DNA of 64,000 nt from a virus (lineage: Duplodnaviria > Caudoviricetes): positions 14,586 to 78,585 of the IMG/VR virus record IMGVR_UViG_3300021254_000033; one strand, written 5' to 3'. Below are positions 7,726 through 64,000 of the stretch, in pieces. Positions within the stretch are counted from its first letter, which is position 1, and every line of letters starts with the position of its first letter. Made by a program: the position numbers and the translations under genes. The notes under the pieces were generated by a model that was given only the letters and a program-made list of their open reading frames with translations, was not told the origin of the DNA and ran no database searches.

Positions 7726-10700
7726 ATGGCAGGAAATCATTTTTCAGTAACCTTTGATGCTCAAATGAATGTGAGTCAGATTAAGGGTGCTATTAATGAC
7801 ATGAAAAAGGGGCTTGAAGGATTAAAGCTACCTGATAATATGGAGAAAAAAATTGGTAATATTTTCTCTAATATGAGTGATGAGTTAAAAAGATTTGAGT
7901 CTCTCGCAGCGAGAGATTTAAAATCTCCTGCAGATTTTAATAAATTAAATCAAAGCGGAGAAAAAATTCTTCATTTATATCAGCGACTGAGAACAGAAAT
8001 ATCAAGTCTTAGTGATATGCCGCAAAAAAGTCTTGAAAAACTTTTTCCATCTTCAATAACAAATAATATTGATAAGGCAACTGCGGCACTAAAAAAATAT
8101 AAAGAAGCACAAGCACAAATAACTAATGAGTTATCTAATAGACAATCAACTTTAGAAAAAAAACAAAAAGAATTATCTACAGCTGAATCAAAGCATAAAG
8201 AATACATGGATAAAACTACCTATAAGCAAGAAACAGGTAGACTAGAAGATTTACTAAAACAACGACAACTTTTAGATTCAGAATTAAATAGAAGAGCCGA
8301 AGGTGGAAGACAAAGAAAAAGTGCATCTGATTATACTGGTTATGATATGAAAAAATTAAAATCAGAATATAGCGCTGTTACACAAGAGGTTGATAAATTA
8401 CAACAAAAGTTATCTAAAGTTACAACTAATGCTATCACTGCAACAAATAGTGAATCTAATATTACTAGACTTAAAACCGAAATAAAAGAATTACAAGATG
8501 CAATAAATAGCCTTGAAGGGGAAGGGCGACTTAATCTAGATAATTTATTTTCTGCTTTAGAAGGTATAGATGGAATAGATTTAAGTAATGTTGAAAGAAA
8601 TGCGAATGGTGCACAAGAGGCAATTAATAAATTAAATGCAAAGGGCGCGCAAGAACTTCTCAATAATTTAAATAAAATTGGATCTACTGTAGATAATCAA
8701 AAAGGAGCTTTTGACGGATTAGAAAATAGTATGCATCAAGTGGGAGCAGAAGTTGAGGCTGCGGATGCAAAATTTAGAGATGTCAGTGCTATAAAATCTC
8801 GTATTGCAGCATTTTTATCTGTAGAAAGCGCTGTAAGATTATTTAGACGTGCAATTACAAGTTCTTTTGAAACAATTAAAGAATTGGATGCCACAATGAC
8901 AGAAACAGCAGTAGTTACTGATTTTAGTGTTTCTGATATGTGGAAACAGTTACCCAGATATACTAAAATGGCTAATGAACTGGGTGTTACAACTAATGAA
9001 GCGTATAAGGCTGCCACTTTGTATTATCAACAAGGTTTGTCTACCAATCAAGCCATGGCTGTTTCTAATGAAACATTAAAAATGGCTCGTATTGCTGGCA
9101 TTGATGCCGCCGATGCTACTGACTATATGACCGCTGCGCTTCGTGGTTTTAATATGGAAATTAACGAAGTTTCTGCTCAAAGAGTAAATGATGTTTATTC
9201 AAAATTAGCTGCAGAAACTGCATCTGATACAGAAGAACTTTCCATTGCTATGAGTAAAACAGCCTCCATTGCTGCCAATGCTAATATGGAATTTGAGAAT
9301 ACTGCGGCATTTCTAGCTCAGATTATTGAAACAACTAGAGAGGCTCCAGAAACCGCTGGTACAGCAATGAAAACTATTATTGCTCGTTTTTCTGAGGTTA
9401 AAAGTTTATTTTCTCAGGGGCAATTATTAGGAACTGATGAAGAAGGCGAAGAAATCAATATTAATAAAATTGATACAGCATTACAGAATGTAGGAATTTC
9501 TTTAAAAGATTTTTTGAATGGTAGTATTGGTTTAGATGATGTTTTATTACAATTAGCTAGTAAATGGGACACTCTTGATTTGGCTACTCAAAGATATATT
9601 GCTACAACTGCTGCGGGATCTAGACAACAATCTCGTTTCTTGGCTATGATGAGTAATTATAGTCGTACAGTAGAATTAGTCGATAAAGCTTATTCCGCTG
9701 AAGGCGCAGGTCAAGAACAGTTTGAAAAAACTCTAGATAGTATGGAAACAGCATTAGCTCGACTAAAAAATGCTTGGGATCAGTTCGCTATGGGTATCAT
9801 GAATAGTAGTATAGCTAAAGGTGGTATTCATGCTTTAACAGGTTTTTTAGAAATTATTAATAAATTAACCAGCGGGTTAGGTGATTTAGGTAACACAGTA
9901 ACTAAGCTAGGTCTTGGTATAGGAGCGTTTCAGTTAGGAAGAGGATTATTTGATATATTAACTTCTCAACGAAAAGGTGAAAAAATAAAATCAATATCTG
10001 GAAAACAACTAGTTAATTTTAAAAATATAGGGGTAAATTTTAAAAATGATCTTTTTGAAACAGTACAGGAGGGATTAAATAGTCCTTCCTCTAAAAAATT
10101 ATCTCTTTCAAAAGCTCTTTCAGGATTTTTTAAAGGATCTACCATTAATGCCGAACAAATAAAAGCTGCTATAAATAGAGATCGTCCAGATGTTGCACAA
10201 TTTTCAAATAGATATGCAGAAGTTGCGCTAGAAACTTTTCGTGAACGAGGAAGAGAAGGATTAGCTGAGTTAGAACAAGAATGGGGAGTAAGTTTTAATT
10301 CTCTGGAAGAAACTGCAGCAAAGGCTCAACTACTTGGCGTCGCCGCGACTTTTGCTGGCGGGGCAATGTTAAAATTAGGCAATGCCCTGGAGTCAGCGGG
10401 ACACACTAAGGCTGCGGAAGTGTTTGATACCTTGGGAACCGCGGTTATGACGGCAGGAGTAGCACTTAGTTCATTAAGTGTAATTATTCCTGCTATAGGT
10501 AATCTTTTTCCCGCATTAGGCGCAAAAATCGCTGCAGCAGGTTTACTTGGTTTATCTGGGTGGCTTTGGATTGCTGGAATTGCAGCAGCAGTAGGAGCTA
10601 TTGGTTTTCTTACTTATAAATTAGTAAAAGGAATTAAAGCTAATTCCTTGGAAGGTCAAATAGAATCTACAGAAAAAGCTGTTCAACGCTCAAGAGAGGA

Positions 10701-13700
10701 AGCGGATAAGGCACAGTCTGCTTATGATGAACTTTTAAATACTAAGGCGTCTTATAATGATTTACAAGAAGGGTTAGCAAATTTAACTACTGGTACACAA
10801 GAATGGAGTAAAGCTTTAGTTGAAGCAAATCAACAAGTATTAGATTTAGTAAATAAATATCCCAAACTTTCTCGATATTTAGAGATGGGGGATAAAGGTC
10901 AACTTTCTATTAGTGACAAAGGTTGGAATTATGTAGAAGATTTAGCCGAAAGAGGAGTAAAAAATAGTCAAGCAGCATTAATTAATAATCAATTAAGGTT
11001 AGAAAAATTAAAAGGACGGCGTGCGAATAATGATTTATTTAATGCTGTAGAAAATGAAACAAATCAACGTCTTGCTTCATATATTTCTAAACGAAGGAAT
11101 GACTCAATCGAAGAGCTGGTTTCTGGAGAGAATTTTGCAAAAACCTTCAAGAGCAAAGATAATGCCAATCTTCGAAGACTGGCACAAAGGATGGATATAT
11201 CTGTTGAGCAAGCATATAATTTAAGAGATTCTTTTGCGGAATATAATGCCGCAATGGTTGAGCGAGATGCTACCACAAAAAATTTGGCTAAATCATTATT
11301 AACTGCTTCTTCTTCTAAAGAGGTCTTAGATTACAAGTTTAGTGACCAATTGTTTTCTGGTATTTCAGAAAATATGATTTCTGATAGTTATGATAAAGTT
11401 TTAACTTCTGCTGCATCGGAAATTTCTGATGTTAGTAGTGAACGTTTTAAAACTCTGGCTGAAGATTATGGCGTTTCAACTGAAATGGTTGGTAATGCAC
11501 AAAAAGATTTAGAAACTCTTTATGCTGCTATGAAAAATATTGATGTTAAATCAGTTTCTGAAGCACAATTAAGTACAAAAGAGTTATCTAATGAAATTGC
11601 CGCGATGTCTCAAAGTGATGTAATTTCAGAAAATCTCGATGTTTTAACTAAAAAATTAAGAGGACTAGATGAAAATACTGAGAGACAACTTGCTGGATTA
11701 TTTTCAGGTGATTTTTTAGATTTAACTGGTGAAGAAGTCGCAAACTTAGATGTTACTGGATTAACTTCTACTTTAAAAAATGCTTTAGGTGACCAAGCTG
11801 ACAGTATTATGCAGTCTTTAGGGTATGAAAGTTTTGACTCTTTTGCTCAAGGAGTTGCTGATAATAAAACTGCATTACAAGAGGCTTATGCAAAAAATAT
11901 TTCTGATACATTAAAGAAAATTAATAAATACTCAGATAATTTGGTTTCTAAACTTGGAGAAGATGGTACAAAAACTTTATTAGAAGATTTTACCATAACT
12001 CAAGAAAAATTTAGAGATATGGGACTTGAATTTCAGTCTATGGCAAATGGTATTTTTAATTCTCTTGAAGGAACAGAAAATATTGATATGATTTCTGCAG
12101 GATGGCAGAGTTTTATTAAAGCTATAGATGAAGGCGCGACTGCAAGTCAAATTTCTGAAATGTCTAATTGGATCCAAAGTATTGATTGGTCCAATCCCAT
12201 TGAAGGAGCTTATGCTTTAGGAGAAGCAGCAAATTCTAGTAGTCAACAAATTAAAAATATTGCAAACTCTATGAAAGAGGTTCAAGGAGATACCTATGAT
12301 GCCGCCAGTCAAATGGATTATTTTCTAAAATCTGGAGATTTTGAATCTATGAAAGAAGATTTGAAAGATATTTTAAATGCTGGCGAAGAAATTACTGGAG
12401 CAGATATTAGAGGTCTTACTAAGAATTATAAGAATTTAGATAAGATGCTTAAAAATACTGGTATGTCTGCTTCTGCATTAGGAAAAACATTAACCATGAT
12501 AAATGATGGTTCTTTAAAAGAGAACCAATTAACAAATGCTGTTCTTGCTGCAATTGGAGCATACAATGAATCGGAAGATGTCACTGCTTCAATTATGGAA
12601 AGCATTTCTAATTTTGATCCTGGATATAATGAAGGTGAAATAGCTGGTTTTATTAAATCTTCTAATGAAGCAATTTCAGAGTTAATGAATACTGGATTAT
12701 CTGGTAGTCAACAAATAGGTAATTATCTTGATTATTGGTTTGGTGCAGACTGGGATGCTGGTATTAAAAATGCTGATGAATATACCTCAAAAATTCAACA
12801 ATTAAATGGAGTTTTAAGTCAAAATACTGAGAATATGGCCGCCATGTGGCAACAATTTGCACAAGGCAAAGATGCTTTTGGAAATATGATAGATCCTAAT
12901 ATTCTTAATAATTTAGGATTTTCAGTTGCTAATGGAAGGCTTAATTTAGATGCAGGTACCTCTCTTGATGATGTTATTAAGGGATTACAGCGAGCAGGAT
13001 ATACAAAAAATATGGCAGAAGCCATGCTTAGTGATGCAACAGCTAGATCTCCTGAACTTATGCTTGATTTACGCGCAAGAGAACTTCCAAATGCAATCGA
13101 AAGAGCGAGGGAAAATCTTCCTAGTTTTGGTAAAGATCTTTTTATTATGGATGAAAGTGAAATTGATGCTATTGCAAAGTTTTATGGAGAATCATCAGAT
13201 AAAATTAAGGCGATGCTCCAAGAAAATGGAAAAACAATTTCATTTGTTGATTTATATGATGAATCAGGTAATTTAAAAGATGTAGAAAGCGTTTGGGATC
13301 AATTAGGGTCAGCTTTTGGGTATAAAGATGAGTCAGTAAGAGTTTTTGATAATGATACCAAAACTTGGAAAAAAGAAGGCAAAACCGCAGGTGAGAATTT
13401 TAGAGATGGTTTTAATGATAAAGGGGTTTTGGATTTAGCTGGTTTTGAAAAAATGGCTAAAAAATTAAGAATCCCAGAAGAAGGTCAGAAAGCTTTAAAA
13501 CAAGATTTAGTTCAATCTTTCGCGGACGGCGCGCAAGAAGGAGTAACTCAATCTCTTACTTATCTTTCCGAAGTCACTGGTAGAGAAGAAACTATTCCAA
13601 TACAATTTGATTTAGAAGGTGATCCTGTTGAACAGGCTGAGGCTGCAATTAAAGCCAGAGAGTTAGAACTTGAAGCAAAAGTTAATGCAGATGCAATAAT

Positions 13701-16695
13701 GTCAGCTTTAGAAGGAATAGAAATTCATATTGGAATTGATGAAAACGGTTTAGTAGGAACAATAACTCGAACGATTGAAAGTGCTAGTGGACAACCAACT
13801 CTTGAGCAACCTAATAGTGGACCTATTACATCAGCAATAGCATCAGGAATTAGAAATGCACCAAAAACCGTAGCATTAAATGCCGTTATAAATGGACTGG
13901 GAAGTGTAGCGAGTCAAATTAGTGCAATAGTTAATAGAAGTTACACTGTTTATATTGGTACGGCATATACTGGGGCTTCTGGAGGACCAATAGCACCTTA
14001 TAGACAAGCAGGTTATAATGGTCGTGGAGCAAAAGGCGTAAAAAATGCTTCTCATAGTTCCATCTTTTTAACTGGAGAAGAAGGACCGGAAATTCACCAG
14101 TTAGCAAAAGGGGGTTATTATATCACTGGTACTACAGGACCCTCTATAGATTATGTAAATAAAGGAGATACAATTTATACAGCAGAAGAAACTGAGAAAA
14201 TTTTGTCTGGTAATAGACGATCCATAACTCGTAAAAGATTTTCATCAGGTGCAAATGGATCTTCTAGTTCTGCTATTTATCCGACAAATTCTACCTCTTC
14301 TAATAGTTCTTCATCAGGTTCTGCTTCTAATAAAAACAAAAATGCAACTGAATCAAAAACTACAGCAAAAAACACTCAAAAAGCCGCAGAAGATGCCGAA
14401 AAATGGGAAAACTCTTTTGACCACCTTTATAATCTAACCCAAGACATCAATGCAGAACTTCGAACTCGTGAAAAACTTGAAAAACAATATAATCGTTATC
14501 AGAAAGAAAGAATTCCTATTGGAAAAACATTAGCTCAAATCTCTAAATCTGAACTTTATTCTCTTGAGCAACAAAGGAAACTTCAAGAACAAATGCTTGA
14601 GGAAAGAAAGAAAGACATCAAAGATACTGAAGAGAAATATAAAGATTATAATCAATACGCTCATTATAATTGGAAAGACCAGACTATTGAAATAGATTGG
14701 GATAAAATTAATGCTGTTACTGATAAAGATCAGGGTGAAAAAATTGAAGAGTATATCGATAAATTAGAAGAAATTCAAGACCAAATTCAAGATACCGAAG
14801 ATGCGATTGATAAAATTTATGATGATATGCAGGAAATTAGAGAGCGTGGAGAGAAAGCAAATAGAGAATTACAAGATGATGTATTAAAAGCACTAATTGA
14901 CCAAGAACAAAAACAAATTGATTTACAAGAAAAAACAAATCAAGCTATCTCAGATGCTGCAAATGATTTACATGAAGCAATTAGCAAGAATATAGACAAA
15001 ATGCGCCAAGACCGTGATAATGAGCGTAAAAAGGAAGACTTAGCAGAAAAAGAAAGACGTCTTTCTTATTTGAAGATGGATACAACTGGTGGTAATGCTC
15101 TTGCTATTAAACGACTAGAGAAAGAAATAAGAGACGAAAGAGAAGATTTTAATGACGCTTTAGTTGACCAAGCATTGAGTAATATGCAAGAACAAAATGA
15201 AGAGGCTGCAGACCAAAGAGAAAGACAAGTTGAATTGCTACAAGGTATATTAGATTTTCAAACAAAAATTGGATATTTTGCTAAAAAAGCTGAAGAAATT
15301 GTTGATGCAGGAACTAAAGATGGTATTTTAATGAAAGATAGTAAATTGTATGATTTACTTGTTACTGAGAATGAAGATTTTTGGACTAAGTCTATACCAT
15401 CTAGAAATGAATTTATTAGTGAATTGGCAACAAGAGTTGCTGAAAAATTCCAAAAGGATGAGTTAATAAATTCTGAAAGAAATCTAAATAACGGTGGTTA
15501 CATGACACAAATGATGAACGCCACTAGCGCAGAACAATTTAGACAAGCTGAAGAAGCAAGAAATGCTTATGTTAATGATCATCCTGAAGAAGGTTGGGCA
15601 ACTACTGGCTTCTCTGAAGCATATCAAGAAGGACAGATTAATAAAAAAGGATTAAACAAAGATTTAATATTAGGAGGAAAAGACTCAACTGGATATGTAT
15701 ATGATTTCCAAGCATTAATGAATAAAGCAATAAAAGAAGGAAAGTGGGAAGAAGCCGCGATGTGGGAAGGATATCGTGACTTAAAACTTCACTTACTCAA
15801 TAGAGATTCTGAAAGAACTTATGGCTCTCAATCTGCTTCAGCTTATGCAAATGCTACCGGGAGTAGAACTTCTAGTGGTGAATACGGTACCGCAAAAGAC
15901 CAAGGTGCATCTCATGGTACAAGTATACTTGAAGAAAAAGCTAAAAAATTATATGAAGCAAATATTGCTAATTTACCTGAACCGACAACTGCTGGTGGAT
16001 ATATGGAATTAATGCAACAAGCAATGGATAGAGGGCGTTTTGATGAGGCTTTTGCTTATGCTAAAAAGAGAGACGCTAAAATTGGTGCAACTGGTAAAGC
16101 TTATAATGAACAAGATTCATTTGCATATGTTTACAGAAAATTTGCAGGCTATGGAGATAATTGGCAAACTGCTTGGGATGAATATCAGAAAGGTTATAAT
16201 AAAGGTTATGAAGATAATAAAGATTATAAAGCATTAGCAATAGAAGCTATGAATAATAGCAAATGGAAACAAGCCTTCTATTATGCAGGTCAAAGAGATA
16301 ATAAACTTGCTACTGATCCAAGTGTTGCCCAGTACAGATCGGATAGAACAGATGATACTTGGGAATACGTATTCAGAAAATGGAACGGAAAATTTAAAAC
16401 TGGTGGCTTAGTTGAAGGAACAGGTCTTGCTTGGCTTGATGGTACGCCTTCCCGTCCAGAATATGTACTGAATGCTGGACAAACTCAAGCCTTCCTGCGG
16501 CTGAGTGATATGATTAGCAACTTAGGCTCTACATCTACTCAACAAACAGTTGGTGATACTTATATTAATGTAGATATTAATGTTGATCAAATTGCTAATG
16601 ATTATGATGTAGAAGCTGCCGCTGAAAAAGTTAAACAAATTATTTATCAAGACAGTATGTACAGAAATGTAAATAGAGTTAATCTTTTAAGATAA
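7726..16695 (+). CDS. Tape measure protein (TP901-family core, long coiled coils)
   Basis: 2989 aa; TMP core around ETAVVTDFSVSDMW..LYYQQG; hydrophobic Gly/Ala segments; typical C-terminus FKTGGL..AWLDGTPSRPEYVLNA. Confidence 0.92.
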   Translation: MAGNHFSVTFDAQMNVSQIKGAINDMKKGLEGLKLPDNMEKKIGNIFSNMSDELKRFESLAARDLKSPADFNKLNQSGEKILHLYQRLRTEISSLSDMPQKSLEKLFPSSITNNIDKATAALKKYKEAQAQITNELSNRQSTLEKKQKELSTAESKHKEYMDKTTYKQETGRLEDLLKQRQLLDSELNRRAEGGRQRKSASDYTGYDMKKLKSEYSAVTQEVDKLQQKLSKVTTNAITATNSESNITRLKTEIKELQDAINSLEGEGRLNLDNLFSALEGIDGIDLSNVERNANGAQEAINKLNAKGAQELLNNLNKIGSTVDNQKGAFDGLENSMHQVGAEVEAADAKFRDVSAIKSRIAAFLSVESAVRLFRRAITSSFETIKELDATMTETAVVTDFSVSDMWKQLPRYTKMANELGVTTNEAYKAATLYYQQGLSTNQAMAVSNETLKMARIAGIDAADATDYMTAALRGFNMEINEVSAQRVNDVYSKLAAETASDTEELSIAMSKTASIAANANMEFENTAAFLAQIIETTREAPETAGTAMKTIIARFSEVKSLFSQGQLLGTDEEGEEININKIDTALQNVGISLKDFLNGSIGLDDVLLQLASKWDTLDLATQRYIATTAAGSRQQSRFLAMMSNYSRTVELVDKAYSAEGAGQEQFEKTLDSMETALARLKNAWDQFAMGIMNSSIAKGGIHALTGFLEIINKLTSGLGDLGNTVTKLGLGIGAFQLGRGLFDILTSQRKGEKIKSISGKQLVNFKNIGVNFKNDLFETVQEGLNSPSSKKLSLSKALSGFFKGSTINAEQIKAAINRDRPDVAQFSNRYAEVALETFRERGREGLAELEQEWGVSFNSLEETAAKAQLLGVAATFAGGAMLKLGNALESAGHTKAAEVFDTLGTAVMTAGVALSSLSVIIPAIGNLFPALGAKIAAAGLLGLSGWLWIAGIAAAVGAIGFLTYKLVKGIKANSLEGQIESTEKAVQRSREEADKAQSAYDELLNTKASYNDLQEGLANLTTGTQEWSKALVEANQQVLDLVNKYPKLSRYLEMGDKGQLSISDKGWNYVEDLAERGVKNSQAALINNQLRLEKLKGRRANNDLFNAVENETNQRLASYISKRRNDSIEELVSGENFAKTFKSKDNANLRRLAQRMDISVEQAYNLRDSFAEYNAAMVERDATTKNLAKSLLTASSSKEVLDYKFSDQLFSGISENMISDSYDKVLTSAASEISDVSSERFKTLAEDYGVSTEMVGNAQKDLETLYAAMKNIDVKSVSEAQLSTKELSNEIAAMSQSDVISENLDVLTKKLRGLDENTERQLAGLFSGDFLDLTGEEVANLDVTGLTSTLKNALGDQADSIMQSLGYESFDSFAQGVADNKTALQEAYAKNISDTLKKINKYSDNLVSKLGEDGTKTLLEDFTITQEKFRDMGLEFQSMANGIFNSLEGTENIDMISAGWQSFIKAIDEGATASQISEMSNWIQSIDWSNPIEGAYALGEAANSSSQQIKNIANSMKEVQGDTYDAASQMDYFLKSGDFESMKEDLKDILNAGEEITGADIRGLTKNYKNLDKMLKNTGMSASALGKTLTMINDGSLKENQLTNAVLAAIGAYNESEDVTASIMESISNFDPGYNEGEIAGFIKSSNEAISELMNTGLSGSQQIGNYLDYWFGADWDAGIKNADEYTSKIQQLNGVLSQNTENMAAMWQQFAQGKDAFGNMIDPNILNNLGFSVANGRLNLDAGTSLDDVIKGLQRAGYTKNMAEAMLSDATARSPELMLDLRARELPNAIERARENLPSFGKDLFIMDESEIDAIAKFYGESSDKIKAMLQENGKTISFVDLYDESGNLKDVESVWDQLGSAFGYKDESVRVFDNDTKTWKKEGKTAGENFRDGFNDKGVLDLAGFEKMAKKLRIPEEGQKALKQDLVQSFADGAQEGVTQSLTYLSEVTGREETIPIQFDLEGDPVEQAEAAIKARELELEAKVNADAIMSALEGIEIHIGIDENGLVGTITRTIESASGQPTLEQPNSGPITSAIASGIRNAPKTVALNAVINGLGSVASQISAIVNRSYTVYIGTAYTGASGGPIAPYRQAGYNGRGAKGVKNASHSSIFLTGEEGPEIHQLAKGGYYITGTTGPSIDYVNKGDTIYTAEETEKILSGNRRSITRKRFSSGANGSSSSAIYPTNSTSSNSSSSGSASNKNKNATESKTTAKNTQKAAEDAEKWENSFDHLYNLTQDINAELRTREKLEKQYNRYQKERIPIGKTLAQISKSELYSLEQQRKLQEQMLEERKKDIKDTEEKYKDYNQYAHYNWKDQTIEIDWDKINAVTDKDQGEKIEEYIDKLEEIQDQIQDTEDAIDKIYDDMQEIRERGEKANRELQDDVLKALIDQEQKQIDLQEKTNQAISDAANDLHEAISKNIDKMRQDRDNERKKEDLAEKERRLSYLKMDTTGGNALAIKRLEKEIRDEREDFNDALVDQALSNMQEQNEEAADQRERQVELLQGILDFQTKIGYFAKKAEEIVDAGTKDGILMKDSKLYDLLVTENEDFWTKSIPSRNEFISELATRVAEKFQKDELINSERNLNNGGYMTQMMNATSAEQFRQAEEARNAYVNDHPEEGWATTGFSEAYQEGQINKKGLNKDLILGGKDSTGYVYDFQALMNKAIKEGKWEEAAMWEGYRDLKLHLLNRDSERTYGSQSASAYANATGSRTSSGEYGTAKDQGASHGTSILEEKAKKLYEANIANLPEPTTAGGYMELMQQAMDRGRFDEAFAYAKKRDAKIGATGKAYNEQDSFAYVYRKFAGYGDNWQTAWDEYQKGYNKGYEDNKDYKALAIEAMNNSKWKQAFYYAGQRDNKLATDPSVAQYRSDRTDDTWEYVFRKWNGKFKTGGLVEGTGLAWLDGTPSRPEYVLNAGQTQAFLRLSDMISNLGSTSTQQTVGDTYINVDINVDQIANDYDVEAAAEKVKQIIYQDSMYRNVNRVNLLR

Positions 16696-32633: not shown

Positions 32634-33742
32634 TATATCAATTTTCCTCCTACTAATTCCACTTTATTTCTTTCGTAGAATTCTTTAAATAAATTAGGAT
32701 AATTTTCTGCTACATAAAAGAAAAGAGTTTTTGCTTTTTCTTTTTTTATTACATTTTGAAATCCCGTAGTGGTTTCGGTTTTTAATAATCTACAATATCT
32801 ATATAAGGCATCTGTTATATCATAATTTTGATAAAAATTATTATATGCAGAAAACAACCGAATCAAATCTACGGTTTCTTGCGTAAGTAGAAAATTATCA
32901 CTAACGTCAAGTAAAATTTTTATATGATTGTTACAACAAAAGATGACCTGCCTAAAAATTTGTAATAATTCCTCTTCTAAAAAATGGTTAGCCGTGGACG
33001 AGGACGGGTAAGGGGAATAAATTATATGTAGTCCACGAATTTCTTTTGAGTAATTTGCCAAAGCGAAAAAATCTTCATCATTTAAAATCGTTGTTATTCT
33101 AAAATTTCCATATGATGATAATTGAATTTTTCGCCAATCTTCAAATTGTTTTAAATTTTTACAGCGAATAGGATATTTTGTTGCTAATCTAGTATTTTTA
33201 TTTTCATATTTAAGATTATAAAGTCCTTCTTCTATTACCACCCGCGCGCCTTCAACATTACTTAAATCATAATCATGTAAAAATAAAACATTTCTACTCC
33301 CCAATCTTTTTGTTTGGTCAATAAAGTATGGAGAAATATGTTTTTCATCAAGAGAAAGTCGTAGGTGTGCAGCATTTTTTAAAGTTATAAAAGCTAAAGT
33401 ATTATTTTTTAATTCATCTTCAAATAAATGTTTATACGGCAAATAAATACTAAAGTCCGCATCACAAGCCTCTATATCTTGTGCAAGAGGATGATATTTA
33501 TTATAAGAAAAAGCTAAACCACCATATTGAATATTATGATATTCACTTATTTCTTTTGGAAAAGTTCCATCATAATAATCTTTTCGTAGAAAAAATTGAG
33601 AATAACGGTCAGGTGAAATAGAGGGAGATAATACCACTATCTCCCTTTTTCTTTTATAATAAGTTGCTAATTTCATTAGTTCCAAGTTTGGAATTGTTTG
33701 ATGATATTTAAAAAAATCTTCGTCATAAAGTCCGATTGACAT
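32633..33742 (-). CDS. Hypothetical protein, possibly a degenerate radical-SAM family member
   Basis: N-terminus IGLYDED..PNLELMKLATYYK resembles phage IGLIDVD..PNLALMK proteins; no CxxxCxxC; TAATG-coupled to dnaE. Confidence 0.4.
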   Translation of the reverse strand: MSIGLYDEDFFKYHQTIPNLELMKLATYYKRKREIVVLSPSISPDRYSQFFLRKDYYDGTFPKEISEYHNIQYGGLAFSYNKYHPLAQDIEACDADFSIYLPYKHLFEDELKNNTLAFITLKNAAHLRLSLDEKHISPYFIDQTKRLGSRNVLFLHDYDLSNVEGARVVIEEGLYNLKYENKNTRLATKYPIRCKNLKQFEDWRKIQLSSYGNFRITTILNDEDFFALANYSKEIRGLHIIYSPYPSSSTANHFLEEELLQIFRQVIFCCNNHIKILLDVSDNFLLTQETVDLIRLFSAYNNFYQNYDITDALYRYCRLLKTETTTGFQNVIKKEKAKTLFFYVAENYPNLFKEFYERNKVELVGGKLI

Positions 33743-36700
33743 TATTCTTCACCTGTTCTTGCATATGTTTTAATATCCCCTTCTTCTGTTACCTCAGTTA
33801 TTTTTTCCACCAAATGCCAAGGTGTCCGAGAATATTTTTTTGCCTGAAAATCATTTTCTCTTCTAATACCAGTAATAATAAGTTTATTTCCTCTTTGAAA
33901 CATACTCTTTTCAATTACGTGTTTTTTACCATCGGCTCCGCGCTCACTAATTTGTCTATCATAATAAGTGAATACAGCTCCATAAATTTTAACCGTTACA
34001 ACACCTGTTTTTGTTAATAATGTGATACTTTTTCTTGATTTATCTTTATCTAATACTGTACCGATAATACGATGAATCTTAAATAAAGGAATTCTTTTTC
34101 CTTTTATATTAATAAAACGATCAACATCAGGCTCTTCACTAAGACTAAAAAAGTCTGAAAAACCATATTTCTCTTCATTCACTACCGCTAATTCATGTTC
34201 ATGAGAATAATATGAAACTGAATCCATTTCCCATTTACTTAAATTACCTAAACAATATTTATCCCAGGTATCTTTCATTAAACGGCTATTAACAGCTTCC
34301 AATAATTCAGCATTATGTTCTTTTACATAAGGACGTATAATATCCATCTGCTTTTTATAAATATTATCCCAGAACGTTTGTTTAATTTTGAATCCACTTT
34401 CTGTTTCCGCTGAAGATTCTAAATCATCTAAATCAAAAAATTTCTCATAAAAAGATAATCCAACATTATCTATTCCATAATAAGTATTATCTAATTTTTG
34501 TTTTTTAACATATTTGTTAAAATTATAAACACGTTTTTGTAAGTCATACTCATAAGGAATTAATCCAAAATCAATTAACATCTTCATATTTTGAAGAGTT
34601 ATTCTTTTCTTTTGGTCACTAATTGATGCAACGTATTTTTTCATTATCTCTTCTCTATCACCGAGAAAATCAAACGCCCCACTTTTAATTAAGTTTATAA
34701 CTTGAGGCTTTGTAATTTTTACCTTATTGGTTAAATCTTCTACTGAATTATACGGCCGCGCGCTCAGAATGTTTTTTACAACTTCATCTCCAACTTTACT
34801 AATACCACTTAATCCATAACGAATTGTATTGTGTTCAAGGTCTGGAGAAAAAGTATAAGTTGATTTATTAATGTCCGGCGGAGCAATTTGAATTCCCGCC
34901 ATTCTCATTTTTCCAATCGCAGTGGCAATCTTTCCATAATTCGTAGTTTTTTGTTTTTTCTTTTTTACAGTTTTACTTTCTTCTTCCTCATCATCTTCGC
35001 TTTCTTCATATTCAGCTCCAAAATCAACCATTTCGTCATAACACGTCGAATCTTCAATGTACTCTTCTTCCACTACTGAATCTTCTTCTATCCCACCGCT
35101 ATCACTAATTAAACAAGCACAATTCCAGAAAATTAATGGGTAACGATAAGCCAAATTCATTTCCTGAAGAGCGATTAATGAGTAAGCAAGAGTATGAGAT
35201 TTATTAAATCCATATCCTCTACTATATGCTACCAAAACTTGCCAAACATATCTACATAAATTTTTACTTAATCCTTTCTCTCTCATATTCGCATAATATT
35301 CTTCAGTTAATTTATCATATTCTGCAGGATTCTTTTTTGCGATAGATTTACGCAATCTATCTGCCCATGTTAAATCAAATCCTCCACATTCTGGTATCTG
35401 AACAAGTGTCATAAAACCTTCTTGACTTTCGCAAATACCATATGATAAATCTAATTCTTTATGCAGAATACTTTTTTCTTCCTCAGTTAATCCCCATTTT
35501 TCCATTTCCTCATTCCATAACTCAGGATTATTTTTAAATCTGGCAAATTTACTCAGCGGCTGCTCTGCCCCTCTTTCTTGCGCCATTAATCGAATTACAG
35601 AATTTAAAGTTGCCAAATCATCTACAGAAGATGGTTTTGCTAACGCTATCCCCTGAACTCCACTTTGCTGCTCCATTTGAAATAATGAAAAAATTTCATG
35701 ATTCCAAACCATTTTCCACATATTCGGGTCATCACGCTCAAGATTATAAATACCTACTACTGATTCATATGTTTCTCTCAAAGTGGATTTGCGTTCTACT
35801 AATCCGTTATCACATAACAAATCAAGACAAGTATGAATTTTATCCATAGCTTCAACTGATAATGCGTCATACTTAATTAAACTTACCGCTTCATCATCAT
35901 GAAGATCAAAGGCTGTAATAATAGTTCCATCTGGCGACCGCATTAATCCAGTGGAATTTGTAAAAGGTTCATCAACGAAAATAACTCCACCTGCGTGCGC
36001 GCCCAGTCTATTAACTAATCCTTCAATTTTTCGAGCTACTGTCCAAAGTTCAGGATAATTTTCTGTCATTTCAATTACAAATTGCTTAATTGGAGTGAAC
36101 CCACTTTCTTTATCACCGTACATACATTGATCCAATGTACGCACTAATCCTCTATCTGATGGAATTAAGGAAGAAATGTATGAAGCAATATCAACATCAA
36201 TTCCTAATCCTCTCGCAGCAGTTAATATTGCTGACTTTGATTTTTCAGTTCCAAAGGTTGCAACATTTGATACTCTATCATTACCATATACTTCTCTAAA
36301 TTTATTTAAAACAGTTGCTCTCCGCCCGCCTTCAATATCAAAATCTACATCCAATACAGATACACGATTTGGATTGAGAAAACGCCATGAAAAAGTTTTT
36401 GTTTTTTCTTTTAAAGGATTAATTTGAGTAATATCTAAAACATATAATAAAATAAAACCTACTCCAGAGCCTCTACCTGGTCCTACAATACTACCAGCAT
36501 CCCAACACACGTCAATAATATGTTGAAGATTTAAAATATAAGAAGACCAGCTTGCATTATTTACTTTTGAAGAAATTTTAATCATTTCAAGATTAGAATT
36601 AATTTCATTATATGCTTCTTCATTCTGTAAATCCGAATGTTTTTTAATTCCATCAATAATTTTATAAACCAAATAATAGTCACCTTTATCTTCTGATTTT

Positions 36701-37736
36701 ATAAAATCATTAAACATTGGAATTTTTTGACACCATTCATTTAGCTCTTTTTCTGTAATTTCATTATCTATTTTATTCCAAGTTAAAGTCGGGATTTTTA
36801 ATGATTTATTTAAATCGTAATCTTCACAACTATCAAAAATCCCTTGGATTGTTTTATATGCTTTTTCTAATTCTTCTTTTGACAAATAAGAAAAATATTT
36901 TTCTAATTCTTCTGTATTCATCATATAAGTTGAAGCATAAAAATCATCTACTTCTCTTTCTCCGTTTTGAGAATTGAGAAAAGCTTTATGAACAAATCTA
37001 TCATCTTTTTCTAAATAATGACTATCAGTCGTGATAATATATGGAATATCATACTCTTTTGAATGTTCAATTAACCATTTATTTACAAAGATTTGTTCTT
37101 CATTAAAACTTGGTTGCATCTCAAAAAAGAAGTTCCCGTGACCAAAAACTTCATCCATTTGAGTAATCCAAATTTTTATTTTTTCATATAACTCATTATC
37201 TTTTGTATCTCTCCAACGTAATAATTGTGTTGGGAGCGCGCCGCCTAAACAAGCAGTTGATCCAATTACATGACCTGGGTTTGCTCCAATTATATCAATC
37301 AAATCTTGATAATAAGTTGGAACTCTTCTCATACCACGAGCCATATAACTTCTCATCCAGGCGCGAGTAGATATTTCTCTAATTTGCTGATGACCAATCG
37401 CATCTTTAGCCAACAAAATAAAATGAAAGTATCTATCTACTCCTGATACAAAATTATTATTATTAAGACCATTTCGAGTTAAATAAATCTCATTACCTAA
37501 AACAACCTTAAAATTTGGGTGTTCTTTTTTAATTTTTTTATAATAATTTAATACTTTAATTGAATTACTAATACATTCATGATCAGTAATTGCTATACCA
37601 GAATGTCCAAGTTTAATAGCATAATCAATTAATTCATTTTCTTTTATAATACAGTCACGTAAACGAATATTACTAAATTGTGTATGGCTCCCTAATTATG
37701 AAGACTTCCGGGATATTCTTTAATCATAGTCTTCAT
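33742..37736 (-). CDS. dnaE: DNA polymerase III alpha subunit, frame broken by 8 nt (37687-37694) in the PHP motif
   Basis: MKTMIKEYPGSLHN then TAG; in another frame HTQFS..AITDH..GNEIY..HFILLAK continues without stops into 33742-37416; GPGRGS, DVDFD, HAGGV, YGFNKSH motifs. Confidence 0.9.
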
Positions 37737-61607: not shown

Positions 61608-61964
61608 ATGAGTTATAGTTTACAACTTGCTGTAAAAATTGCGACTGATGATGGAGTAGATTATTTTGCTCGAATTGATGAGCCAAAATACAATTCACCG
61701 ACTTATAATTTAAGTTTAATGTTTAGAATGTGTATGAACTGGGATTATGAACAGGAAAAATATTATAAATGTTCTGAAGTCATTGACAGAATTGAAAGAG
61801 GAATACGAGAACTCCATCTTAATTTTAAAGAATATGAAAAATATAATCCTGAAAATGGATGGGGAAATGTAAACAATGCGACAGAAGCATTGGAATCTTT
61901 AAGAGATTGCATCTATAAAAATGCAAAGTATATTCCTGTAGAATATTTATATATGAAATGGTGA
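61608..61964 (+). CDS. Conserved phage hypothetical protein
   Basis: SPTYNL..MF..YNPENGWG motif; AAGGAG RBS. Confidence 0.6.
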   Translation: MSYSLQLAVKIATDDGVDYFARIDEPKYNSPTYNLSLMFRMCMNWDYEQEKYYKCSEVIDRIERGIRELHLNFKEYEKYNPENGWGNVNNATEALESLRDCIYKNAKYIPVEYLYMKW

Positions 61965-61974
61965 CTATTAAAAT

Positions 61975-62003
61975 TTGATTTTTTCTAAAAAATTTTATAT
62001 AAT
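61975..62003 (+). promoter_or_regulatory. sigmaA-type promoter of the ncRNA/tRNA operon
   Basis: TTGATT-N17-TATAAT followed by ATATATAG. Confidence 0.85.
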
Positions 62004-62038
62004 ATATATAGAAAGTTGAGTTAATACTGACTTTCTTC

Positions 62039-62222
62039 TGTGCGAGACATATTTAGCACGTTAAATAAGAAATATGGGGTCGAAGACATGGATTTTAACT
62101 GTTAAACTACCACCGGCATCAGCTGTAGACAATAGGAATCTCATTCCAAAAGACATGAGGGAGTTGATGATATGTGGCTTTGTGGCTAGCGACTGAAAAT
62201 AAAGGCAAAGTAAACAGTTTAA
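62039..62222 (+). ncRNA. Structured RNA leader (H-type pseudoknot plus multistem domain), family unknown
   Basis: TGTGC:GCACG crossed by CATATTT:AAATATG; AACTGTT:AACAGTT, CATCAGCT:AGTTGATG, CTCAT:ATGAG. Confidence 0.45.
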
Positions 62223-62225
62223 TAT

Positions 62226-62299
62226 CGCGGGTTCGTATAAAGGAAGTACACAAGGCTCATTACCTTGATATGCCAGTTCGAGTCTGGTGCCCGCATCCA
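62226..62299 (+). tRNA. tRNA with CAT anticodon (Met/fMet/Ile2 identity ambiguous)
   Basis: Cloverleaf; CAAGG-CTCATTA-CCTTG; TTCGAGT T-loop; encoded CCA; C1:A72 mismatch. Confidence 0.85.
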
Positions 62300-62393
62300 A
62301 AACATGGCATCTCCTTTTAAATAAAAGTCCTCAAAATCCTCCAGTTTTCCAGAGTACGTCGCGGAGGTAAAACCTAAACTGGAATTAGAAGGA

Positions 62394-63013
62394 GAATAAT
62401 GCTCTTTAAAAATATTATATGATAACTCAGTGCTAAACCATATCTCGCAGATATGGCTGAGAAACGTCGAAAAGTGCTCGGCAGGAAACATAAGGATACT
62501 TGTGCGTACTGGGCCGCCTTCTAAGTCGCGAGGCTTAGTTGGAAGGATGAACTCCGAAAGTAAAGACGTTGTGCTAATTTTATCGCAAGTAATTGTAGTA
62601 TGCGTATGGGCGGCGCAATAGAAGCCTTCTTTAAGAGAGTTGGCTGAATCCAAGTTAGGTATTAGCTGGTGACTGTTACAAACCTTGGAAATACCAATAA
62701 GCCGTTTTGCCGTGAGATCGTAGAAATACGAAGTATAACATATGTATGCAACTCTGAGTAGCTCAAGGCAATGCAGTTAGGTTAGAAAGATTTAACAAGG
62801 ATTATGAGGATAATATATGTTAAGTTCTTGGTGAATTGTGGGTGAAAAGTGGAGGTAAACAATCCTCTTAGAGTATAAGGGAAACCTGGGGTGAAAAAGT
62901 CATAGGCTGACGGGTCTAGGCTCACAGTCATCTCCTCTATGACAGAATATGCTTGAAGGTAAAAGATAGTAAGACGAAGGTCTATTGTATGATATTTTTA
63001 AAGGGCATTATTT
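62394..63013 (+). ncRNA. Large (620 nt) ornate ncRNA, ROOL/GOLLD-class candidate
   Basis: 30-bp terminal helix 62394-62423:62984-63013; many internal stems, GNRA loops and crossing pairings; no credible ORF; flanked by tRNAs. Confidence 0.75.
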
Positions 63014-63039
63014 AGGTGTTATGATTGTTGTGTTGGTAG

Positions 63040-63073
63040 ATAACACCGTAGATAATGCGGTGTTATTTTTTTT
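63040..63073 (+). terminator. Intrinsic terminator after the large ncRNA
   Basis: ATAACACCGTA/TGCGGTGTTAT stem plus T-run. Confidence 0.8.
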
Positions 63074-63100
63074 ATTAAAAATTTTTAGGAAGATTATCAT

Positions 63101-63176
63101 AGGCGTTTGGTGAAGCGGTGAACACACAGGACTTTGACTCCTGCATACGTTGGTTCGAATCCAACAGCGCCTGCCA
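63101..63176 (+). tRNA. tRNA-Gln(TTG)
   Basis: Cloverleaf; CAGGA-CTTTGAC-TCCTG; GGTTCGAATCC; CCA. Confidence 0.95.
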
Positions 63177-63345
63177 AGTTCATGTGCCAAGAGTACAAGG
63201 AACTCCTGTTGACGAGAGTAAATAAATCTATAGTAATATTGCTCTCGTTAATTGCAACTGCGCAGTTATGTCACTGCGCCGCATCCTTCAAGGAGAAATT
63301 AAAGGAGCCGCCTGCTGGAGGCAAGTTCGCAATATCCAGCAATAT

Positions 63346-63431
63346 GGAGAGGTACTCAAGTGGTTAAGAGGACGGTTTGCTAAACCGTTAGGTCGCAAGG
63401 TACGTGGGTTCGAATCCCACTCTCTCCGCCA
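63346..63431 (+). tRNA. tRNA-Ser(GCT)
   Basis: ACGGT-TTGCTAA-ACCGT; long variable arm; G73; CCA. Confidence 0.95.
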
Positions 63432-63629
63432 CATAGGGATGATGTATAGCGGATAAAGCACCCTGGTGAGTAGCTAACACCATAAAAAGTTCGAAACTAA
63501 CCGCTGGCTATGTTTTTAGGAGTTTTTACCAGTCTAAAGAAGGACAGAAAACTTTAGTAACGTTACCAGTTTTTGGTTACCTGCTACACGCTCGCACGTA
63601 GGAAAACCAATACTTCTATATGCCGTATT

Positions 63630-63692
63630 TCAAGGGGCGGTGGTAGTGGATACCTTTAGGTGGAATGATTCGACTTCATTACTGTCCTTTGA
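63630..63692 (+). ncRNA. tRNA-like element lacking an anticodon arm
   Basis: 12-bp closing stem; D-like arm GGTA-GTGGA-TACC; T-arm AATGA-TTCGACT-TCATT; only 9 nt between the arms; no CCA. Confidence 0.55.
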
Positions 63693-63727
63693 TACTTGAC
63701 ATATAGAGGATAACCTATTTTATTTTT

Positions 63728-63801
63728 GGGGGCGTAGTTAAATGGGATAACAGCGGTCTCCAAAACCGTAGTTGTAGGTTCGATTCCTACCGTCTCTGCC
63801 A
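63728..63801 (+). tRNA. tRNA-Trp(CCA)
   Basis: GCGGT-CTCCAAA-ACCGT; GGTTCGATTCC; CCA. Confidence 0.93.
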
Positions 63802-63804
63802 CAT

Positions 63805-63880
63805 GGGAAAGTAACTCAACGGTTAGAGTGGGGTTCTTATAAAACTCTGGTAGGTGGTTCGACTCCACCCTTTCCTACCA
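63805..63880 (+). tRNA. tRNA-Ile(TAT)
   Basis: GGGTT-CTTATAA-AACTC; GGTTCGACTCC; A73; CCA. Confidence 0.9.
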
Positions 63881-63908
63881 TTTTTATTTTAAAAAAAGGA
63901 GGGCATAA

Positions 63909-64000
63909 ATGAAATATTATAGTGAATTAACAAAGAATTTTTATGACACTGAAAAAGAATGTATCGCTGCGGAATCTGAAAAAAAGAAGAGAGATGAGGA
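63909..64000 (+). CDS. Hypothetical protein, 3'-truncated
   Basis: AAGGAGG RBS; MKYYSELTKNFYDTEKEC.. open to the window end. Confidence 0.6.
   Translation, partial: MKYYSELTKNFYDTEKECIAAESEKKKRDE

Follow-up and report, generated by a model that had tools for sequence, protein, structure and literature searches.

ROOL was described in 2017 (Weinberg et al.) as an ornate RNA of ~581 nt (the family mean is 581 nt) that occurs in phages and prophages, near tRNA genes (PMC5737381). Cryo-EM has since revealed that ROOLs self-assemble, protein-free, into dihedral cages (Kretsch et al. 2025, PMC12286853; reviewed in PMC12990946). The assemblies are octameric for Env-120 and an Enterococcus ROOL, and hexameric for a Ligilactobacillus ROOL. 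The cage is ~280 Å across, contains the disordered variable linker in its interior, and has a symmetric 4-bp kissing loop, L18, between its half-shells (bridge B6) (PMC12286853, PMC12990946). The pairing between loop L8 and junction J6/8, a pseudoknot in the 2017 ROOL model, is the inter-subunit bridge B4 of the cryo-EM nanocage (PMC12286853). Encapsulation of a macromolecule has been suggested as the role of ROOL. GOLLD (RF02032), another large ornate RNA of phages and prophages, is likewise located near tRNA genes and builds a cage of RNA only (PMC12286853).

Here, we analyze a 64,000-nt stretch of DNA (hereafter, the window), which is the 3' 64 kb of a 78,585-bp IMG/VR virus record with an estimated completeness of 67%. 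We conclude that the region at 62394-63013 is almost certainly a ROOL RNA gene (RF03087), ~620 nt long with its extended closing helix P1, situated in a tRNA array of a large tailed phage with a Gram-positive (Bacillota-like) host. ROOL is already known as an RNA-only cage former; the region is real but does not represent a new class.

Results and Discussion

Identification of the ROOL gene

Scanning the whole window against Rfam 15, we obtained one large match, to ROOL (RF03087) at 62402-63002 on the + strand, with a score of 291.1 bits (E = 8.8e-66; the curated gathering score of the family is 99.1 bits). The match covers model positions 1 to 574 of 574 without truncation and was reproduced when the whole contig was scanned. 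It spans 601 nt, which becomes 620 nt (62394-63013) when the full P1, extending beyond the model, is included. GOLLD had no match in the whole window at its gathering score, nor in 61900-64000 even at E ≤ 1, a permissive scan that returned nothing relevant beyond ROOL. Two further matches in the array, YrlA (24 bits) and a plastid 3'UTR (42 bits), were below their cut-offs and overlap tRNA genes; we rejected them as artefacts of tRNA-likeness.

The initial annotation, made from the sequence without database searches, had proposed either a ROOL-like member or a new class of RNA, and had suggested this same comparison with the Rfam ROOL and GOLLD models. The first option is correct, given a full-length match whose score of 291 bits exceeds the cut-off of 99. 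As that annotation had itself anticipated, a strong ROOL match, while confirming the RNA, does away with the idea of a new class. Its remark that the size fits ROOL better than full-length GOLLD is also borne out, as ROOL is matched end to end and GOLLD is not matched.

The RNA is thus an ordinary member of a known family, which a standard Rfam scan labels as such. It resembles other ROOLs in its full-length covariance-model match, its length of ~600 nt, its multi-junction fold, its L8-J6/8 pairing, its variable linker, and its location in a phage beside tRNA genes. It departs from them in three respects: its P1 of 30 bp is 14 bp longer than the Rfam consensus helix (20 to 36 bp being typical of this clade), its hairpin at 62873-62886 is minimal, and an intrinsic terminator directly follows this copy. 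GOLLD, by contrast, differs from the window's RNA in sequence, fold, and size. The defining features of ROOL that we assessed at the level of sequence are all present; membership in the family, a conserved fold, and the preservation of one known inter-subunit contact are what these comparisons establish directly.

Internal fold and covariation

To assess covariation among homologues, a check that the initial annotation had proposed, we aligned 31 ROOLs with MAFFT from sequence only, blind to structure (alignment A1), and counted pairs according to the Rfam-derived structure, to which the 30-bp P1 was added. Paired cells made up 68.9% of the total, compared with 56.9% in shuffles, and changes on both sides were found in 128 of 167 pairs. 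The covariation score was 0.394 against 0.188 in shuffled data, the observed value being reached in none of 500 shuffles, and it fell to 0.185 or less when partners were slid by one to three columns. As judged from this alignment, the structure of the ROOL family covaries strongly across the 31 sequences.

Several + strand helices are nearly always paired among the 31 ROOLs while varying in sequence. These are 62426-62430:62456-62460 (A1 columns 66-70 with 98-102), 62601-62608:62739-62746 (columns 288-295 with 447-454), 62609-62614:62701-62706 (columns 296-301 with 402-407; 97.8% paired), 62718-62722:62727-62731 (columns 420-424 with 435-439), 62870-62872:62936-62938 (columns 605-607 with 741-743; 100% paired, with three pair types), and 62972-62975:62980-62983 (columns 779-782 with 787-790; 100% paired).

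Every motif named in the initial annotation was located where it had been placed. Five of the proposed stems agree with the family consensus structure, namely CTCAG:CTGAG enclosing CCATATCT:AGATATGG, AACGTC:GACGTT, CTAAGTC-GCGA-GGCTTAG, CGTA-GAAA-TACG, and CCAAG:CTTGG. Three other pairings are unsupported, because one arm of each sits in a covarying family helix. Instead of forming TAACATAT:ATATGTTA, 62739-62746 pairs with 62601-62608; in place of GTCATAG:CTATGAC, 62936-62938 pairs with 62870-62872; and in place of the long-range GCCGCC:GGCGGC, 62609-62614 pairs with 62701-62706. These three errors leave the identification unchanged. More plausibly, ATATGTTA closes a local hairpin inside the variable linker. 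This linker, between the 5' and 3' parts of the RNA (62767-62837, + strand), corresponds in the Rfam alignment to the variable, unstructured loop, relative to which it has a 17-nt insertion, and shows no conservation among the 31 relatives. The hairpin at 62873-62886 is minimal in the window; the insertions that relatives carry there reach ~80 nt.

Loop L8 (TGGTG, 62667-62671) and junction J6/8 (TACCA, 62692-62696), both on the + strand, are complementary over 5 bp. A crossing pairing GGTATT:AATACC had been proposed here and was a near miss: it adjoins the real contact, but the conserved pairing is TGGTG:TACCA. Relatives keep the contact through compensatory changes, with 3 to 8 bp and differing sequences (for example, TGGTG/TACCA, TTGACA/TGTCAA, AGCTT/AAGCT, TTGGTC/GACCAA, and TTGGCGT/ATGCCAA). 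Because this pairing is preserved and covaries, we have indirect evidence that the window's ROOL also oligomerises.

The closing helix P1

P1 joins its 5' arm (62394-62423) to its 3' arm (62984-63013) on the + strand through 30 contiguous pairs, 25 of them Watson-Crick and 5 G-U, exactly as first described. Such a helix is far beyond chance: when 62300-63100 was mononucleotide-shuffled 100 times, the longest run of pairs that its two halves could form averaged 12.5 and never exceeded 17. The P1 of the Rfam model corresponds to 62408-62423, to which the window adds 14 further pairs outward. Although 62424 and 62983 could form a 31st pair, we favour the competing family hairpin at 62972-62983, which is 100% paired and covaries.

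Because MAFFT aligns the ends poorly, P1 was instead measured sequence by sequence: 21 of the 31 have a closing helix of 20 to 36 bp without interruption, with 11 distinct sequences. Thus, a long P1 is conserved in the clade rather than peculiar to the window. The asymmetry of the fold bears out the argument that the G-U wobbles favour an RNA of the + strand: the + strand folds at -187.7 kcal/mol (z = -5.4), compared with -129.9 kcal/mol (z = -2.6) for its reverse complement.

The 5' arm of P1 also holds an AGGAG motif and a 7-codon mini-ORF (ATG at 62399, stop at 62420-62422; together at 62389-62422 of the window). Some relatives have an ATG in the same arm too. The mini-ORF probably results incidentally from conservation of the sequence of the helix.

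ROOL in related phages

We retrieved 79 related IMG/VR loci with the DNA polymerase of the contig and searched 48 of their contigs with the ROOL model. ROOL was present in 30 of the 48, with one full-length copy each (256 to 359 bits), and in 23 of the 27 related contigs that are at least 90% complete. The closest ROOL found is 68% identical to that of the window. Same-strand tRNA genes lie within 1.5 kb of ROOL in 25 of the 30 relatives, and in four of them (L145, L146, L154, and L171) a tRNA starts ~5 to 20 nt past the end of P1. Many other relatives have a small gene, with a product starting MKYYSE or MARFYSD, directly after ROOL. Its homologue in the window starts at 63909, after the extra tRNAs, and runs off the end at 64000; it begins MKYYSELTKNFYDTEKE, the versions of relatives being MKYYSETLNKIYDTQEEL, MARFYSDITNKLYDS, and MKFYSEKTGELFDT. 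The order of ROOL followed by the small gene is conserved, with four extra tRNAs between the two in the window.

Other searches for relatives were less productive. No match to the ROOL region or to the last 20 kb of the window was found by blastn among 50,697 deposited phage genomes, and the upstream 222-aa gene, used as a query for related loci, found no relatives. Scanning IMG/VR for the motif GGAAATNCCAATAAGNC, which is too short for a collection of that size, returned 64 loci. None are ROOLs: they lack the flanking motifs, and an nhmmer search of them with the ROOL of the window gave no match. GOLLD was not found as a substitute in the five relatives that lack ROOL, a weak negative given that control genomes were also without a hit. 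A tRNA with a CUA anticodon ('Pyl' by ARAGORN) lies at L148:2384-2458, ~270 nt downstream of the ROOL of that relative; it is a candidate amber suppressor, and TAG may be recoded in L148.

In this well-populated clade of large uncultivated phages, ROOL approaches the status of a core gene and is nearly always on the tRNA strand. On its own, the window's copy matters little. Its added value is comparative and modest: a near-core ROOL in this clade, a clade-wide extended P1, and independent covariation support for B4 are the increments over what was known. Together with the location on the tRNA strand, these features support the view that cage assembly is under selection in phages. The ROOLs of the clade also provide a natural set of variants for tests of ROOL function.

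Alternative explanations

Could the RNA still represent a new class, a large ornate RNA that is neither ROOL nor GOLLD? Its primary sequence has diverged, as the 68% identity to its closest ROOL and the absence of blastn matches among deposited phages attest. The ROOL covariance model nevertheless matches it end to end at three times the gathering score, and its helices and L8-J6/8 pairing agree with those of the family and covary; we consider a separate class scarcely credible. A ROOL relic in decay, no longer functional or able to fold or assemble, is also improbable, if slightly less so. When the consensus structure is carried onto the window through the cmscan alignment, 153 pairs map, of which 129 are canonical and 24 are not; the hairpin at 62873-62886 is shorter than in any other member of the set, and the score falls in the lower half of the clade range. 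Several of the non-canonical pairs, however, reflect local misregister by the aligner, which for example breaks the register of P1 where the pairing is contiguous in the sequence itself. Against decay stand the full-length, untruncated match, a P1 that is perfect over 30 bp, the intact partners of B4, and the minimum free energy z-score of -5.4, while the retention of ROOL in 23 of 27 near-complete relatives argues for selection.

We give practically no credence to a protein-coding or DNA-level element (an ORF, a cruciform, or an origin) in place of an RNA gene. Overlapping ORFs of 144 aa (- strand, 62219-62653) and 63 aa (+ strand, 62430-62621) do exist, but neither has a Pfam match, the longer runs antisense through the tRNA-Met gene, many indels between relatives are not multiples of three, and substitutions in helices are compensatory. 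The 30-bp inverted repeat of P1 could in principle extrude as a cruciform. However, its five G-U pairs would be A-C mismatches on the opposite strand, and the - strand folds worse by 58 kcal/mol; this strand asymmetry, together with covariation of the RNA type, excludes a cruciform. 

The tRNA array and its transcription signals

The placement of the RNA inside a tRNA operon, proposed at the outset, is supported by five flanking tRNA genes on the same (+) strand. The gene for tRNA-Met (CAU; 62226-62299; ARAGORN, with a Rfam tRNA score of 40.3 bits) lies 94 nt upstream of ROOL. Downstream are those for tRNA-Gln (UUG; 63101-63176), tRNA-Ser (GCU; 63346-63431), tRNA-Trp (CCA; 63728-63801), and tRNA-Ile (UAU; 63805-63880), all found by both ARAGORN and Rfam.

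A consensus scan identified a promoter-like site, TTGATT-17-TATAAT, at 61975-62003 on the + strand (10 of 12 matches). It is held within a 51-nt block (61970-62020) that is 85 to 88% identical in three related phages (L154:3214-3264, L171:439-489, and L159:2345-2395 on the minus strand), and each of these copies adjoins tRNA genes. In L159, the block is followed by tRNA-Met and ROOL, the same order as in the window. The site is likely the start of a transcript carrying the leader, tRNA-Met, and ROOL, and the 51-nt block may be a clade-wide promoter for arrays of RNA genes. The same type of scan found no promoter-like site in the 94-nt spacer between tRNA-Met and P1, which makes co-transcription with tRNA-Met the simplest reading. 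Another promoter-like site, a weak one at 62997-63025, overlaps with the 3' arm of P1.

The terminator that had been noted at 63040 is present as an intrinsic-terminator-like hairpin at 63038-63076 (+ strand; ΔG -16.4 kcal/mol), 25 nt after P1, with a 13-bp stem (63038-63068) that includes four G-C pairs and is followed by a run of eight T residues. An equally strong terminator occurs at the same place in only 1 of the 30 relatives (L164). The terminator is thus not conserved in the clade, and the ends of the transcript are uncertain. Since it stands mid-array, right after ROOL, the downstream Gln, Ser, Trp, and Ile tRNAs need either read-through or a promoter of their own.

Two gaps in the array were also scanned. 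The ~185 nt between the promoter-like site and tRNA-Met (62039-62225) contain no ORF and no Rfam match; 62168-62299 is 72% identical to L151:2793-2934, a segment comprising a tRNA-Met and the ~68 nt before it. Neither Rfam nor a blastn comparison with the 30 related loci gave a match for the 296-nt gap between tRNA-Ser and tRNA-Trp (63432-63727), which includes the tRNA-like element placed at 63630-63692 in the initial annotation.

Proposed mechanism

The most likely course is that ROOL is co-transcribed with tRNA-Met, released from the transcript, and self-assembled into a homo-oligomeric RNA cage. Transcription of the + strand would begin at the promoter-like site at 61975-62003 and would end at the terminator at 63038-63076. 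Nucleases that process tRNAs would then free ROOL from the precursor, and a double-strand-specific nuclease might conceivably also cut the 30-bp P1. The released RNA would fold into a flat monomer, and monomers would assemble, without protein, into a dihedral homo-oligomeric cage with the variable linker pointing inwards. With low confidence, we suggest that its role in infection is tied to the co-encoded tRNAs or to translation, for example by enclosing or sequestering a macromolecule.

In precursor rRNA, the 5' and 3' flanks of the 16S and 23S rRNAs pair with each other in long helices, which RNase III cuts. The P1 of this clade is similar to such processing stems, by analogy only, in being a long, near-perfect, end-to-end duplex that closes a large structured RNA on a tRNA-bearing transcript. 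We offer as a tentative and rather doubtful idea that the long P1 could be a dedicated processing signal in this clade of ~110-130-kb phages, with an RNase III-like nuclease of the host excising ROOL from the tRNA precursor as it does for rRNA. If true, ROOL would be made in a fixed proportion to the phage tRNAs and would acquire the defined ends needed for cage assembly.

The phage contig and its host

Genes on the contig encode a 2989-aa tape measure protein, a PolIII-alpha-type DNA polymerase, both subunits of topoisomerase II, a RecJ-like nuclease, and NrdD. The closest cultured relative of the polymerase is YorL of Bacillus phage SPbeta, with 39% identity, a resemblance that suggests a host among the Bacillota. 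The alignment of the polymerase ORF (33742-37416, minus strand) with the 1190-position profile of PHROG 405 starts only at position 130, so the N-terminal part of the protein is seemingly missing from the ORF or encoded separately upstream. The tape measure protein, encoded at 7726-16695, is exceptionally long at 2989 aa and implies a very long tail.
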